Positions 1,587-39,275 of a stretch of 64,000 nucleotides of DNA are shown piece by piece. Every line of letters starts with the position of its first letter. Position 1 is the first letter of the stretch. The stretch spans positions 2,909-66,908 of the forward strand of contig JBHLLO010000009.1 in the NCBI GenBank assembly GCA_048885535.1. The letters are read 5' to 3'. Position numbers and translations under genes: made by a program. The DNA is from Candidatus Hermodarchaeota archaeon. Its GTDB lineage: Archaea; Asgardarchaeota; Lokiarchaeia; Sigyniarchaeales; SOKP01. The notes below the pieces were generated by a model. The model was not told the DNA's origin and searched no databases. It was given only the letters and a program-made list of their open reading frames with translations.

Positions 1587-3863
1587 ATGAAAAAAAAAGC
1601 CCCCCTCTTTTTGATATCTAGTCTTTTAATTGTAATAATTTTACCTTTACTCTATAGCAATTATAATTCCTTTATTTTGTTAACAAAAAATCTTAATTTT
1701 AATCTTGAAACGAGTCAAATTTATTCAGGGCGTTATAATGGTGATATGGCTATTATGTATTTTGACCAAAATTCGATGCTTTCTTCAGAATTTAATAGTC
1801 AATCTATCACACAAAGAATACCATATAATTTTTCCCGTCCTGGATATGAGTATAGAGTGAGTAGCTTGGACATATGGGCAGAGTTATCATATGGATATAA
1901 AATTGCTGGTAATGTATCTGAGCAGATAGACATAAATTCCTCATATGCAGTATTCCAAGAATTTATATATCCTGATATCGAAAAATTAGATGGAATTATG
2001 ATTTATCTTAATTATAGTATAATATATGAACCAATCAACTACTATTATTGGGATATGTTCATTTATGATGAAAATTCAACGCAAATTGATTGGTTTTGGA
2101 ACTATGAAACTCGAAAAGTAGTTGATGAATGGATGAGGTTTGAACCAACTATTTATCATTTTGAACCAGGAAAAAATTATACTATTGCATTACGATTTTG
2201 GCACCCAACACTATATTATTCTTATCCTTTTGATTTCTGGAAAGCTGAAAATTATACAGATCCAAAATATAATAAAGGCGTCACAAGTTTTTTTAATGGT
2301 ACATATGAATTTCCAGTGGAAAATGACGCAACTACAGATATGTTGTGTTATTTATTATATACAGAAGAACTAGAGCCCTCTAGTATCGATATTGACTTTA
2401 TAATCAATGGTCAGTATGTTCCTCCTATATATCAAGAAACTTATGTATTCTGGTCTCATTCTTTTAATACGCCATTGACGCAAGACATTAACTTGACAGT
2501 TTTATGTGATAAAGTTATTCCGGTCATAAGTGTATATACCGACATCTATTATACATATCTAATTAATGCGAGTGGAATATATAACGTTCATGATAATCGT
2601 ATTGAGTGGATTGTTAATTATACTTATGAAGAAATTCCTTATGGATGGCCCCCTCCTATGCTTTTATTTGAGAGAGATTGGGATCTTGACTTCCTTTATG
2701 ATCCTTATGGAGTTGAGATGACAAACATTTACTTTGGTCCTATCTCACTCTATAATCACTCATATTATGGTATTACCACTATTTTTGGTCGTCCTTTCGA
2801 AAAAGGAACATATATTGGAGAATTTCATTCTCCAAATTATTGCACATCTATTAAAACCCAAGTCAAATCGAATGGTGGATTTACTAATCAAGCTTCATTT
2901 GAATTAGGTCAGACAATTAGATTTGAAGCTGCAATTATTAGTTCCATATATAGATCAAACGAAATCGAAGGGACAGGAACAATTCTATTGAGAACTCCTT
3001 CTGGTCAGGTAATTCATAATGAGACAGGATTGACCCCATTAAATGGAGTTTTAACTAGTTCAGAAATAGTTTTGAATACAGAAATGGCAGAAGGACTTTA
3101 TGAAGTAGAAGTTTTTTGGACAAATGGGAAAGAAGTTGCGTATTATACAGTTCAATTTGAAATTAGAGTGCCCGTTAATATTGTTTTAATTGTTGCTATC
3201 GCAGCAAGCATTGCTTTTGCCTCTGTGCCTCTCGCATTAGTAGCTAGGCGGCAAATTAGGCAAAGAAATTGGGAGAAATCTCTGAAGAATCTATTTGTCT
3301 TAACAAAAGATGGATTAAGTTTGTATGAATTTTCTTTTGGAATCGAGATACAAGATCCCGCTTTGATTGCTGGGATGATTGCAGCACTCACTCAGTTTGT
3401 TCGTGAGACCACTGGGAGTAAAAAACTGTTACGAACTATAGATCAAGAAGATAAAAAAGTCATACTATTTCACGGTGAGTTTACCACCGTAGCTCTATTA
3501 GCTGAGAAAAATTTACCTATAATTCATAATCGTATTAAGAAATTCACTCAAGAATTTGAAAGCAATTTCTACAAACAAATAAAGAGTTTTGATGGCGAAA
3601 TTTCTGCTTTCAAACATGCTGATGTAATTGTAAATAAATATTTCCCTATTGATGTAGAGGAGCAGGTCATTCGAGCGGTTCGACAAAAACTCATAGAGTT
3701 TAGGGAAAGACTTGATGTTCTTAAAGATCCACGTCATATTATATCTTTAATGCGCGAAATTACAGAATTTCTTTCTAGATATCGAACTATCGTTAATGAG
3801 CACTATTTAGACTATTATAATCAAATCATAACTAGCGCTGAACAGAAAATCTCAACAGCTTAG
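1587..3863 (+). CDS. Membrane protein: N-terminal anchor, large extracellular beta-rich region, TM helix, cytoplasmic longin-like domain
   Basis: Hydrophobic N-terminus; many N-x-S/T sequons; TM IVLIVAIAASIAFASVPLALV; then LFVLTKDGLSLY...DPALIAGMIAALTQFVRE, a longin-like pattern also seen in the 18400 protein. Confidence 0.75.
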   Translation: MKKKAPLFLISSLLIVIILPLLYSNYNSFILLTKNLNFNLETSQIYSGRYNGDMAIMYFDQNSMLSSEFNSQSITQRIPYNFSRPGYEYRVSSLDIWAELSYGYKIAGNVSEQIDINSSYAVFQEFIYPDIEKLDGIMIYLNYSIIYEPINYYYWDMFIYDENSTQIDWFWNYETRKVVDEWMRFEPTIYHFEPGKNYTIALRFWHPTLYYSYPFDFWKAENYTDPKYNKGVTSFFNGTYEFPVENDATTDMLCYLLYTEELEPSSIDIDFIINGQYVPPIYQETYVFWSHSFNTPLTQDINLTVLCDKVIPVISVYTDIYYTYLINASGIYNVHDNRIEWIVNYTYEEIPYGWPPPMLLFERDWDLDFLYDPYGVEMTNIYFGPISLYNHSYYGITTIFGRPFEKGTYIGEFHSPNYCTSIKTQVKSNGGFTNQASFELGQTIRFEAAIISSIYRSNEIEGTGTILLRTPSGQVIHNETGLTPLNGVLTSSEIVLNTEMAEGLYEVEVFWTNGKEVAYYTVQFEIRVPVNIVLIVAIAASIAFASVPLALVARRQIRQRNWEKSLKNLFVLTKDGLSLYEFSFGIEIQDPALIAGMIAALTQFVRETTGSKKLLRTIDQEDKKVILFHGEFTTVALLAEKNLPIIHNRIKKFTQEFESNFYKQIKSFDGEISAFKHADVIVNKYFPIDVEEQVIRAVRQKLIEFRERLDVLKDPRHIISLMREITEFLSRYRTIVNEHYLDYYNQIITSAEQKISTA

Positions 3864-35942: not shown

Positions 35943-37514
35943 TTACCAAGGTCTTCTAAGAGTAGTCATTCTACTCATAGCAGATTTGTTGGGATAATCT
36001 AAATTATAATGAATCCCCCGACTTTCCTTTCTAGAGATTGCACTTACTATGATTAATTTAGCAACAGTTGCTAGATTTCTTAATTCAAGTAGATCCCTTT
36101 CAATTTTAAAATCCCAATAATATTGGTTTATTTCATCTTGTAATAAATTTATACGCTTTTTAGCGCGTTGAAGACTCTTGTCAGTTCGGACAATTCCAAC
36201 GAAGTTTGTCATAAAGTGTCTAATTTCATTCCAATTCTGAGTAATTACAACTGCTTCAGTTGAAGGTACAGCATTTCCAGGTTCCCATTCTGGAAATTCA
36301 ATAGTTTTTAAATTTTTCATTCCCTTAGCTATTGTTTTAGCACATTCATGAGCACACACTAAACTCTCCACTAAACTATTAGAGGCGAGTCTGTTAGCCC
36401 CATGTAATCCCGTGCATGCTGATTCTCCTATTACATACAAATTTTTAACTTTAGTAGAACCATCTAATTTTGTAAGTACTCCGCCACAACAATAATGTGC
36501 GGCTGGGACGACGGGTATAGGATCTTTCGTAATATCTATATTAAACTGCATACAAGTTTCATAAACACCAGGAAAATGTGCTTTAATAAATTCAGGGCTT
36601 TTGTATGATGCAATATCTAGTAATACATAATCATCTCCTGATTTTTTAAGCTCAGAATCAATCGCTCGAGAAACTACATCACGAGGGGCTAATTCCTTTA
36701 ATGGATGGTACTTTTCCATAAACAGATTTCCATCCATATCCATTAATATTGCCCCTTCTCCACGTATTGCTTCTGTTATTAGAAATGACTTTGCATAAGG
36801 ATGATAAAGACATGTAGGATGAAATTGATAGAATTCCATATTTGCAATTATAGCTCCAGCTCGATATGCCATAGCAATTCCATCTCCAGAGGCCACATCT
36901 GGGTTTGTTGTATATAAATAAATTTTACCTGCACCACCAGTAGCTAAAACAGTTATCTTAGAAGCAATATTATGAATTTCATCAGAATTTTGATCCAAGA
37001 CATATAATCCATCGCATCTAAAGTTGTTTGAGAATAAGTTAATTCCGACCCAATATTCCTTAATCTCAATATTAACATACTTTTTTACTTCTTCAATTAG
37101 TTTTAATGCTATATTTTGGCCTGTTAAATCGTTTACGTGAAGAACTCTTCTTTCGGAATGTCCCCCTTCCTTTCCAAGATCGTAATGTCCATCTGCATTT
37201 CGAGTAAATTCAACACCTAAATCAATTAATTCTTTTATCATTTCTGGTGCTTGAGTAATTATCTTTCTAACAATATTTTCGTCACATAAACCGTCTCCAG
37301 CTAGTATTGTATCCTGAATATGTTTTTCAAAATTATCATTTTCATTCCATACGCAAGCAATTCCTCCTTGAGCATAAAATGTATTAGATTCTTTCAACCC
37401 TTCCTTTGTAATTATCAGAATATTCTGATCTGGAGCTAACTGTGCTAATTTAATTGCCAATGTTAACCCAGAGATTCCTCCTCCAACGATTAAAATATCA
37501 GTTTTAAGCTTCAA
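35943..37514 (-). CDS. nadB: L-aspartate oxidase
   Basis: GGGISG, SNTFYAQGGIA, EGGHSERR, QFHPT, LAPRDVVSR, AAHYCCGG, HGANRLASNSL, ESRGIH. Confidence 0.95.
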   Translation of the reverse strand: MKLKTDILIVGGGISGLTLAIKLAQLAPDQNILIITKEGLKESNTFYAQGGIACVWNENDNFEKHIQDTILAGDGLCDENIVRKIITQAPEMIKELIDLGVEFTRNADGHYDLGKEGGHSERRVLHVNDLTGQNIALKLIEEVKKYVNIEIKEYWVGINLFSNNFRCDGLYVLDQNSDEIHNIASKITVLATGGAGKIYLYTTNPDVASGDGIAMAYRAGAIIANMEFYQFHPTCLYHPYAKSFLITEAIRGEGAILMDMDGNLFMEKYHPLKELAPRDVVSRAIDSELKKSGDDYVLLDIASYKSPEFIKAHFPGVYETCMQFNIDITKDPIPVVPAAHYCCGGVLTKLDGSTKVKNLYVIGESACTGLHGANRLASNSLVESLVCAHECAKTIAKGMKNLKTIEFPEWEPGNAVPSTEAVVITQNWNEIRHFMTNFVGIVRTDKSLQRAKKRINLLQDEINQYYWDFKIERDLLELRNLATVAKLIIVSAISRKESRGIHYNLDYPNKSAMSRMTTLRRPW

Positions 37515-37636
37515 AGAAATCTTTTTAATAAATTCGAAAAAGAATATTAAAATACCAAAATGAAATTAAAATTTTATATCTTTTTGAAAAGACCATCAAA
37601 ATTTTTTTTAAATTTATAATTTTATCTAAATAGATT

Positions 37637-38161
37637 ATGGGAAAAATAAAGAATGTACTCTTTGTCTGTAGTGGAAATAATTAATAATTAACCATAAATA
37701 CTGCAAGGAGTCCCGCAGCAGAATATCTCTCGAAATGGTTAAAAGAAACAAAATTCAAAAAGGAGTTAAAAGATGTACATTTTCATTCTGCTGGTCTTTA
37801 TAGTTATTACAAGACTCCTCAAGAAGGCACAGCTAATTATCTTGAATCAAAAGGAATTGATTTCAGTGATTTCAAAGGAAAAGAGATTACTGAAGAATTA
37901 CTGAAAAAGCAGGATTTAATCTTAGGTTTTGAAGACAAATGGCATATTAGAAAATTAAAAAGAAGATTCAAAAATCTTAAAGAATTAGATAATAAAGTTT
38001 TCTTGTTATTAGATTTTGCTGGAGAAAAAGGAGACCTCGAAATCCCAGATCCTATGAATTTTGAACCGGAACAGTATAGGAAAATAATTGGAAAAATTGA
38101 AAAGGCATTAATAAAAGTATTACAAAAAATAATCGAAATTAATGAATCTGATCAAAAGTGA
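37637..38161 (+). CDS. Low-molecular-weight protein phosphatase (LMW-PTP/YwlE-like), interrupted by a 21-nt putative BHB intron; 167 aa if spliced. Absent from the ORF track.
   Basis: MGKIKNVLFVCSGN-[insert with TAA TAA]-TARSPAAEYL...SAG...QDLILGFE...IPDPM...; the frame downstream of the insert is intact to TGA 38159-38161. Confidence 0.85.
37677..37697 (+). other. Putative bulge-helix-bulge (EndA-type) intron in mRNA, 21 nt (ATAATTAATAATTAACCATAA)
   Basis: Central 4-bp helix GUGG(37671-74)/CCAU(37692-95); 3-nt bulges AAA(37675-77) and AAA(37696-98); exon stems GUA/UAC and ACUCUUUGU(37657-65)/GCAAGGAGU(37703-11); internal AU hairpin. Cutting after bulge nucleotide 2 restores AGT GGA AAT ACT GCA. 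Confidence 0.75.
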
Positions 38162-38634
38162 AAAAAATTAAGAAATTACTCTTTGTTTGTGCGGGGAATA
38201 CAGCAAGAAGTCCTGCAGCGGAGTATTTAGCAAAATTCTATGCTCAGAAACATAATCTGGATATTTATATAGACTCTTGTGGATTCTTTAACGCTTTTTC
38301 TTATATGCAACCGGAATCTCAAGAATATTTGAATTCTAAAGCCATAAACCATTCAGATTTTAGACCTAAAATTATTAATAAGAATTTATTGGAGGAACAA
38401 GATTTAATTTTAACAATGGAGCACTCTCAGTTAATTGAAATAATTACAGATTATTCTAATGTTAAAGACATTGAAAAGAAAACTTTTACATTGAAACAAT
38501 TTAATGGAAATTCAACTGATCTAGATATTATTGACCCTTATTATACTAGTTCAGCTACATATGCAAAGATTCTAAAGATTATTGATATTAATATTGAAAA
38601 ATTAATTCAAAAAATCATAGAGTTGAATAGATAG
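38158..38634 (+). CDS. Low-molecular-weight protein phosphatase (intronless tandem paralog)
   Basis: LLFVCAGNTARSPAAE, DSCG, DLILTME, IIDPY; GTGA overlap with the upstream paralog. Confidence 0.92.
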   Translation: MKKIKKLLFVCAGNTARSPAAEYLAKFYAQKHNLDIYIDSCGFFNAFSYMQPESQEYLNSKAINHSDFRPKIINKNLLEEQDLILTMEHSQLIEIITDYSNVKDIEKKTFTLKQFNGNSTDLDIIDPYYTSSATYAKILKIIDINIEKLIQKIIELNR

Positions 38635-38717: not shown

Positions 38718-39275
38718 TTGGATAAATATTTAATGAATAAAATTACTGTCAATAATACTACTATAGAAATACTTATTAATGATATAGTTTCTACTGACAG
38801 TGATGCTATAGTCATTCCAACTAATAGTAAACTCTTACCTAGTGGAACTTTAAGATGCAAAGTATTACGAGGAGCAGGTTCGAAAGTACAGGTCGAATGT
38901 AATAAGATAATCCAGCAAATCTCAAATATTCCCTTAGGAAAAGCAGTTATAACTTCCGGAGGGAACCTTAAGACTAAATATATAATCCATACTCGGGCGG
39001 GTCATGATAAAAAGAAATTAATGTTATCTACATGGAATGCATTAAAGTTAGCTGATCAGAAACAAATAAGATCAATCTCTTTTCCTCCGCTTTCAATGGA
39101 TGTTATTATCTTTAATGCTCAAATTTGTGCTGAAATAATACTTTCAACAATAAAAAAATATCTCTCTGAAACTAATTCGAATATTCGAAATATTATGGTT
39201 TATCTTGAAACCCTTCCTGATTATAAAGACTTTGAAAGGATTTTGGAAAAATTAAATCCGGAACTTTCTATGTAA
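38718..39275 (+). CDS. Macro-domain protein with degenerate ADP-ribose pocket
   Basis: DI...DSDAIV..., GKAVITSGGNLKTKYIIH, SISFP; canonical NAAN/GGG/GIFG motifs are replaced. Confidence 0.85.
   Translation: MDKYLMNKITVNNTTIEILINDIVSTDSDAIVIPTNSKLLPSGTLRCKVLRGAGSKVQVECNKIIQQISNIPLGKAVITSGGNLKTKYIIHTRAGHDKKKLMLSTWNALKLADQKQIRSISFPPLSMDVIIFNAQICAEIILSTIKKYLSETNSNIRNIMVYLETLPDYKDFERILEKLNPELSM

Follow-up and report, generated by a model that had tools for sequence, protein, structure and literature searches.

A predicted bulge-helix-bulge intron in the catalytic loop of tandem phosphatase genes from one genus of Asgard archaea

The precursor messenger RNA (pre-mRNA) intron of crenarchaeal cbf5, reportedly described in Desulfurococcales and Sulfolobales by Watanabe in 2002 and Yoshinari in 2006, is the closest described counterpart of the element reported here, a predicted bulge-helix-bulge (BHB) intron in the coding sequence of a low-molecular-weight (LMW) phosphatase gene of an Asgard (Promethearchaeota) archaeon, genome G000. 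This gene (gene 1) occupies positions 37637-38161 on the plus strand of the window, by which we mean the whole 64,000-nucleotide stretch of contig JBHLLO010000009.1 that was analysed. According to the available part of the source, the cbf5 intron of Crenarchaeota was the only BHB intron reported in an archaeal coding sequence by 2020 (PMC7714728). The accessible sections of Yokobori 2009 (PMC2738675) place the predicted cuts in cbf5 introns between the second and third bulge residues, at the exon borders, and describe mostly relaxed BHBs, a hetero-oligomeric endonuclease, variable interiors and lineage-specific loss. As far as those sections go, the predicted phosphatase intron is like the cbf5 introns in being a short BHB intron within protein-coding sequence, with the same cut rule, a border motif that is kept and an interior that varies. 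Its distribution is likewise patchy, and carrier monophyly is rejected in neither case (approximately unbiased (AU) test p 0.38 for the phosphatase and, in the same sections, 0.329 for cbf5; PMC2738675).

The two cases also differ. The phosphatase intron comes from the Asgard phylum and interrupts an LMW phosphatase gene, whereas cbf5 encodes a pseudouridine synthase; it lies in the catalytic P-loop, at the same site in two tandem paralogues, and is confined to one genus among the genomes searched. Splicing of cbf5 was shown by complementary DNA (cDNA) and in vitro cleavage, while that of the phosphatase is predicted from DNA sequence. In Haloferax volcanii, a BHB intron in the 5' untranslated region of the HVO_1309 mRNA was shown experimentally, again according to the part of the source that was available (PMC7714728). 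There, as is predicted for the phosphatase, an mRNA is the substrate of the archaeal splicing endonuclease, outside transfer RNA (tRNA) and ribosomal RNA; unlike the phosphatase intron, that of HVO_1309 sits in an untranslated leader, and its host is a euryarchaeon. With archaeal tRNA introns, canonical (37/38) or non-canonical, the phosphatase intron shares the motif, the enzymes expected to act on it and a similar size range, but its host RNA is an mRNA and its outer helix is made of codons, whose synonymous sites are constrained. Eukaryotic HAC1 and XBP1 undergo an unconventional mRNA splicing with cleavage by IRE1 and ligation by RtcB or Trl1, for which a regulatory role is established. 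Like them, the phosphatase case would involve a short intron in a coding mRNA, a protein endonuclease and a tRNA-type ligase, and removal would change the protein made; the endonuclease and the recognition structure are different ones, and a regulatory role in the phosphatase is speculative. A literature search, with most subscription journals outside its coverage, returned no report of a BHB mRNA intron for Asgard archaea or for phosphatase genes. On the best reading, the phosphatase intron would be the first of its kind from Asgard archaea and the second case in a coding sequence.

Gene 1 starts with ATG at 37637 and reads MGKIKNVLFVCSGN, followed by Asn, two stop codons (TAA TAA at 37682-37687) and LTIN, after which it continues with TARSPAAEYL... 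and stays open for 153 more codons, up to TGA at 38159-38161. The interruption is made of 21 extra nucleotides (nt) at 37677-37697 that split the CX5R catalytic loop. A preliminary description of this DNA had noted both the 21-nt insert with its two in-frame TAA codons and the more than 150 intact codons of the rest of the frame, and sequence and frame bear it out on both points. The gene divides as follows.

37637..37676, plus strand: exon 1 of gene 1, from the ATG through base 1 of the Asn codon (MGKIKNVLFVCSG + A)
37677..37697, plus strand: predicted BHB intron, 21 nt, bounded by the rule that cuts fall after the second base of each bulge
37698..38161, plus strand: exon 2 of gene 1, the last two bases of the Asn codon and then TARSP... 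to TGA, with the LMWPc domain

Exon 2 by itself matches Pfam LMWPc (PF01451; E 2.7e-18, profile positions 10-142 of 144). The N-terminal CX5R(S/T) P-loop, C-S-G-N-T-A-R-S, is found in gene 1 only once 37677-37697 is removed, and uninterrupted gene-1 orthologues have the same length as the joined product. From its domain and restored P-loop, gene 1 is predicted to be an LMW protein tyrosine phosphatase or ArsC-like member of the LMWPc family, whose substrate may be phosphotyrosine or arsenate. Its exon-2 frame in G000 contains no ATG, GTG or TTG before 38003, and the longest open reading frame listed there is for that reason only 52 amino acids (aa) long.

The minimum free energy (MFE) fold of the RNA from 37650-37720 has -14.8 kcal/mol (z -2.31), and 4 of 200 shuffles fold as well. 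Its elements, in base pairs (bp) and single bases, are these.

37657..37665, plus strand: 5' arm of the 9-bp outer exon-exon stem, pairing with 37703-37711
37668..37670, plus strand: 5' arm of helix h, GUA, pairing with UAC at 37699-37701
37671..37674, plus strand: 5' arm of the central 4-bp helix H, GUGG, exonic, pairing with intronic CCAU at 37692-37695
37675..37677, plus strand: 5' bulge AAA, predicted cut after 37676
37678..37691, plus strand: inner hairpin UAAUU/AAUUA with a 3-nt loop, plus unpaired A 37691; the variable intron interior
37692..37695, plus strand: 3' arm of central helix H, CCAU, intronic, as folded
37696..37698, plus strand: 3' bulge AAA, predicted cut after 37697; AAA invariant in all seven carriers
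37699..37711, plus strand: 3' arms of helix h (UAC, 37699-37701) and of the outer stem (37703-37711), as folded

Both bulges lie 3' of their own helix strand, the correct handedness for a BHB. The stems, 4-bp helix, AAA bulges and A-U hairpin of the preliminary description are all recovered in the MFE fold; its word "canonical" needs a small qualification, because A 37691 stands unpaired between the inner hairpin and CCAU, the single departure of the G000 fold from the textbook motif. Joining after the second base of each bulge yields GGA-AAU-ACU, or G-N-T; as had been stated, the cut rule removes exactly 37677-37697 and regenerates S-G-N-T-A-R-S. When random or shuffled 21-mers were placed at the site (50,000 trials per model), a correct-register BHB matching the real one arose in 0.27-0.75% of trials and a looser one, also in the correct register, in 2.0-4.6%.

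Seven interrupted genes were found, all in one genus and at the identical position, with inserts of 21, 25 or 33 nt whose interiors differ. Four are copies of gene 1, in G000, in a further genome (G018) and at two metagenomic loci (L062 and L064), with inserts of 21, 21, 21 and 25 nt; with the insert taken out, each of them encodes a full-length product (164-167 aa; 167 aa in G000). The two metagenomic loci were the new carriers among seven loci of a metagenome scan. Within 30 orthologous loci of the genus only G000 and G018 have the gene-1 insert, and searching the DNA of every one of the 42 genomes in the genus returned no further gene-1 carrier. A pattern scan of contigs gave 71 stretches, of which 70 were chance matches, nearly all in bacterial records, and the sole relevant locus (L114) has the same sequence as G018.

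The exon-2 proteins of G000 and G018 share 85% amino-acid identity, with a nonsynonymous to synonymous ratio (omega) of 0.14 at a synonymous divergence (dS) of 0.48, and the two copies of exon 1 differ by two synonymous and no nonsynonymous changes. The 21-nt insert of G018 departs from that of G000 at two positions, 37682 and 37691, neither of them in the central helix or the bulges; this divergence (2/21) is similar to that of the upstream intergenic DNA, and we therefore make no case for a stronger constraint on the intron interior than on neutral DNA. The insert of L062 splits the Asn codon (GGA ATT ...). That of L064, 25 nt long, shifts the frame, so that the exon-1 frame continues without a nearby stop, and its inner hairpin has G:C where G000 has U:A, with a larger loop. 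Across the six pairs of gene-1 carriers omega lies at 0.066-0.203 (dS 0.44-1.07). The selection check suggested for exon 2 thus returned purifying selection (omega 0.07-0.20 among these four) and no decay. In the protein tree the four fall in one unresolved polytomy. As a separate observation, the G000 interior (37676-37691) contains the 7-nt unit AATAATT twice in tandem, and G018 and L062 each depart from this by one base; the repeat hints that slippage shapes the intron interior.

Next to gene 1 lies an uninterrupted paralogue, as the preliminary description had read it.

38158..38634, plus strand: gene 2, uninterrupted paralogue, CAGNTARS loop intact, LMWPc E 8.8e-24

In three other genomes, G010, G022 and G065, the orthologue of gene 2 is interrupted at exactly the gene-1 position, by 21, 21 and 33 nt. 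These inserts contain stops and have unrelated interiors, and the one in G010 splits the Asn codon (GGA AGT...). Removal by the same rule gives intact proteins in 3/3 (161 aa in G022 and in G065, and in G010 171 aa or, from an internal ATG, 157 aa, the form that agrees in length with the other copies). Omega is 0.11 and 0.21 for two of the carrier pairs, the third having a saturated dS. Across genes 1 and 2, the BHB cut rule restores an intact frame of 157-167 aa with CxGNT[A/S]RS in 7/7 carriers, with no frameshifts and no further stops. Among the loci examined, interrupted copies make up 4 of 37 gene-1-type loci, 3 of 27 gene-2-type loci and 0 of 10 other paralogue loci. A degenerate P-loop pattern allowing an insert of 12-42 nt matched 5 of 161 genomes of the class and, in the reversed control, 0; all five belong to the one genus (5/42 of its genomes, 0/119 of the other genomes of the class). 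Since the same site is occupied in gene 2 of some species, the intron would be either older than the duplication and often lost, or copied between tandem paralogues.

Some further features of these tandem genes may be recorded here. Up to four LMW phosphatase copies stand in tandem per genome in this genus. A third paralogue type (L011, L018, L020, L023-L026 and others) has the P-loop C-Y-A-N-T-C-R-T-P instead of C-x-G-N-T-x-R-S-P, and among the loci examined it is never interrupted. It was also examined in G000 whether the exon-exon hairpin might already be present in the uninterrupted paralogue; the stem is not formed there (MFE -7.2 kcal/mol, z +0.33), and the idea found no support.

The comparison of orthologues that had been proposed as a check yielded same-site inserts of differing length and interior in which BHB geometry is kept and compensatory pairs occur. 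In an alignment of the seven carriers (A2), 15 core pairs represent the outer stem, helix h and the central helix; 97.1% of their cells are paired, and sliding the partners by 1-3 columns lowers this share to 36-50%. The two 3-nt bulges with the 4-bp helix can be drawn in 7/7 carriers, and the outer elements, a 3-bp helix and an exon-exon stem of 8-9 bp, are present in all of them. Six of eight outer-stem pairs (37665:37703 left out) are invariant across the seven, and two depart in one carrier each. The MFE folds hold the full motif in four carriers (G000, G018, L064 and G022, each with an inner hairpin of 4-6 bp) and a relaxed one in three, with an open loop in L062, a 2-bp inner helix in G010 and a C.U mismatch in G065. 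Two of the 15 core pairs change on both sides. The first pair of the central helix is G:U in the four gene-1 carriers, C:G in G010 and G022 (CUGG/CCAG against GUGG/CCAU in gene 1) and C.U in G065, while in helix h an A:U is replaced by G:C in G065 (GUG/CAC against GUA/UAC in the other carriers). The covariation score was reached by 10 of 500 shuffles, and covariation across the seven carriers lends modest support to conserved pairing.

Codon usage in the stem agrees with a constraint on the RNA. Among stem codons with an invariant amino acid, 1 of 11 varies synonymously in the carriers, and that sole variable site is unpaired; the remainder of the gene has 47 of 89 (p 0.008). Four equally diverged non-carriers give 7 of 12 for the stem and 50 of 74 for the remainder (p 0.53), and carriers differ from non-carriers in stem synonymous variation at p 0.027; the Fisher tests behind all three values overstate independence, because the carriers are related, and the p-values are optimistic.

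G000 encodes the enzymes that such a splicing reaction calls for. Two EndA-family genes (PF01974, 99.7 and 70.2 bits) have products of 200 and 205 aa, and a single RtcB gene is present (PF01139, 560.9 bits). The two EndA-family genes lie in the regions C6:30393-30617 and C1:55964-56212 of G000. The best PDB matches of one EndA are to chains from heterotetrameric endonucleases of crenarchaea (E 3e-35), while the second EndA, a diverged copy, has PDB matches to tRNA-splicing endonucleases. Judged by the catalytic motif, this copy presumably lacks the catalytic His, and the alpha/beta assignment leans on the same motif. Asgard archaea possess an (alpha-beta)2 EndA whose L1 loop confers broad specificity, according to the available part of the source (PMC5829648). 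At the canonical site, three tRNA genes of G000 are interrupted by BHB-bounded introns (18, 20 and 32 nt). The proposal of an EndA-type BHB intron in an Asgard mRNA appears well founded in view of the comparative evidence and the enzymes encoded. In this genome, 92% complete, aragorn reports 34 tRNA genes and calls introns in 23 of them, and the tRNA set looks heavily disrupted or poorly predicted.

The dependence among related carriers is one of several points that weigh against a BHB intron. Loose BHB geometry is very common in G000 (30% G+C), with 328,204 motif matches in 6.2 Mb of both strands, and the fold taken alone is for that reason unconvincing. Across carriers the motif takes a relaxed form, such as (alpha-beta)2 enzymes accept, and not the strict one. 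In five of seven (G000, G018, L064, G022 and G065) one extra base stands unpaired just before the 3' arm of the central helix; L062 and G010 have an open or asymmetric interior instead, and their inner helix is weak or absent. In G065 the 4-bp helix contains the C.U mismatch, and the MFE favours a shifted register in which the frame is not restored. The covariation comes from only two pairs and three cells, and the four gene-1 carriers taken by themselves show none, with 18 of 20 pairs invariant. Only 4 of the 23 tRNA introns called in G000 fit the BHB definition used. A genome-wide scan for BHBs that repair broken frames had also been proposed. Run on G000 (4-bp helix, at least 3 outer and at least 2 inner pairs, 1-nt slip, spacing 12-100 nt), it gave 3,525 frame-repairing BHBs against 3,446-3,483 in controls with 1-, 2-, 4- and 5-nt bulges, that is, no enrichment. 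Joined products with a junction-spanning alignment to a paralogue at another place in the genome numbered 140, against 126-140 in the controls. When both sides of the junction had to show at least 7 identities within 12 residues, only the phosphatase locus was left, along with one case in one control set. No second convincing BHB gene emerged in G000 from this junction alignment, which sees only genes with paralogues in the genome.

The insert itself is well supported in DNA. It was checked on assembled contigs of sequencing runs, which drop rare variants, and is spanned by contigs from three DNA runs (X1, X2 and X3). Among the 13 sequencing runs that a search returned, no RNA run contained this stretch. 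Two spanning contigs show no differences (X1 record 5 and X2 record 11), and a second variant with 14 differences is represented by two more (X2 record 10 and X3 record 20); it carries the two G018 insert substitutions and keeps all 21 insert bases. No contig of the three covering runs joins across the insert. An assembly error, which the preliminary description had asked to be checked, is excluded by this presence in independent assemblies. In the X2 and X3 sediment runs, G000-type and G018-type variants of window 37556-37759 occur together, and it follows that two carrier species live side by side. One X3 contig (depth 6.8) joins 37625 to 38075 with one T between, skipping 449 bases and most of gene 1; its shorter side is only 23 bases, and the contig may belong to a different organism or have arisen as an artefact of assembly.

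Several other explanations of the interrupted frame were weighed. The gene could be a pseudogene, broken by a short AT-rich insertion or a slippage scar that happens to fold like a BHB in AT-rich DNA. Loose BHB motifs are indeed very common in the genome, 2-4.6% of random inserts give a loose one in the correct register, the interior holds a 7-nt tandem repeat and most orthologues have no insert. Set against this are an omega of 0.07-0.21 between carriers at a dS from 0.44 to saturation, a conserved exon 1, seven of seven carriers without frameshifts or further stops, and interruption of the same site by different inserts in seven genes of two paralogue lineages; diverged flanks and inserts also speak against recent recombinants sharing one dead segment. 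We consider a pseudogene very improbable, and we put no more trust in translational bypassing, in which the ribosome would leave at the Asn codon before the insert and land on a matching one after it to make the same protein. Ribosome hopping is familiar from phage T4 gene 60, and bypass elements also use RNA structure, which is present here; moreover, AAT stands before the insert and AAT or AAC at its end in G000, G018, L064, G022 and G065. In L062 and G010, however, the Asn codon is split and no take-off and landing pair gives CxGNT, and hopping is disfavoured because there the codon exists only after joining. The first stop also varies in position relative to the take-off codon, L064 having none nearby, and the conserved parts (4-bp helix, two bulges, compensatory changes) are what the endonuclease needs, not the ribosome. 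No report of bypassing in archaea is known to us, though no search was aimed at it.

Readthrough of the stops, adding seven residues to the loop, or translation of exon 2 as a separate protein, is the explanation to which we give the least credence. Six of the seven inserts are multiples of 3, as readthrough would have it, but the 25-nt insert of L064 shifts the frame and so rules it out there; CX5R would become CX12R or longer, and the neighbouring genes have ordinary stops. A separate exon-2 protein is opposed by the lack of ATG, GTG and TTG until 38003 in the G000 exon-2 frame and by an exon 1 in which G000 and G018 differ only synonymously. Somewhat less far-fetched, though still improbable, is a loss of the insert from the DNA itself, by programmed excision or by phase variation between short repeats, or its removal from the RNA by an enzyme that is not EndA. 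An AAATA direct repeat flanks the insert in G000 and G018, and the part played by EndA is a prediction. The three covering runs hold no insert-skipping contig, though contigs drop rare variants; the AAATA footprint, raised in the preliminary description as a mark of duplication, is not general, being absent in L062 and G010; and the conserved features are exactly those of an EndA substrate.

We regard it as very probable that 37677-37697 is a 21-nt BHB intron, spliced by EndA and RtcB out of the mRNA coding sequence of the LMW phosphatase gene, since splicing at a BHB explains all the observations. Given a conserved structure, a coding sequence under selection and a genome that encodes the enzymes, cleavage and ligation would run as follows. 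In the pre-mRNA, GUA-GUGG of exon 1 would pair with CCAU at the 3' end of the intron and UAC at the start of exon 2, making a 4-bp helix flanked by two 3-base bulges, clamped outside by the long exon-exon stem and closed inside by the small A-U hairpin. The tRNA-splicing endonuclease, which in G000 is probably a heteromer of both EndA-family proteins, would cut after the second base of each bulge. RtcB would then join the exons, creating the Asn codon, restoring the CSGNTARS loop and giving a 167-aa enzyme, whereas unspliced RNA would yield only a 15-aa peptide.

The GTG start of gene 2 overlaps the TGA stop of gene 1 (GTGA, 38158-38161), and translation of gene 2 may consequently be coupled to full translation of gene 1, and hence to insert removal. 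Beyond these two genes, a Macro-domain protein is encoded downstream at 38718-39275 on the plus strand (PF01661, E 1.3e-18), and upstream, at 35943-37514 on the minus strand, a flavin adenine dinucleotide-binding flavoprotein of the aspartate oxidase / succinate dehydrogenase type (PF00890, E 3e-91). It is conceivable, if rather unlikely, that the intron is a regulated or mobile element, acting either as a gate on the phosphatase and its paralogue or as a mover from paralogue to paralogue. As a gate, splicing by EndA and RtcB would control the active phosphatase and, through the TGA/GTG overlap, the downstream paralogue, which would make it an Asgard counterpart of the RtcB-ligated switch of the XBP1/HAC1 type. 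As a mobile element, occupying the same P-loop site, it would give a first sign that BHB introns can spread from one protein gene to another in a site-specific way.

For gene calling, the interrupted phosphatase genes matter in having no annotatable full-length frame. Their exon-intron helix is a natural example of RNA structure constraining synonymous codon choice, and the system is small, with an RNA of about 70 nt and two small EndA proteins. If the intron is spliced as proposed, protein-gene introns removed by the tRNA machinery would not be a crenarchaeal oddity, and the substrates of the Asgard (alpha-beta)2 endonuclease would be extended. The case would also bear on the origin of endonuclease- and RtcB-type mRNA splicing such as that of XBP1 and HAC1, and on eukaryotic origins, because it lies in the archaeal lineage closest to eukaryotes.

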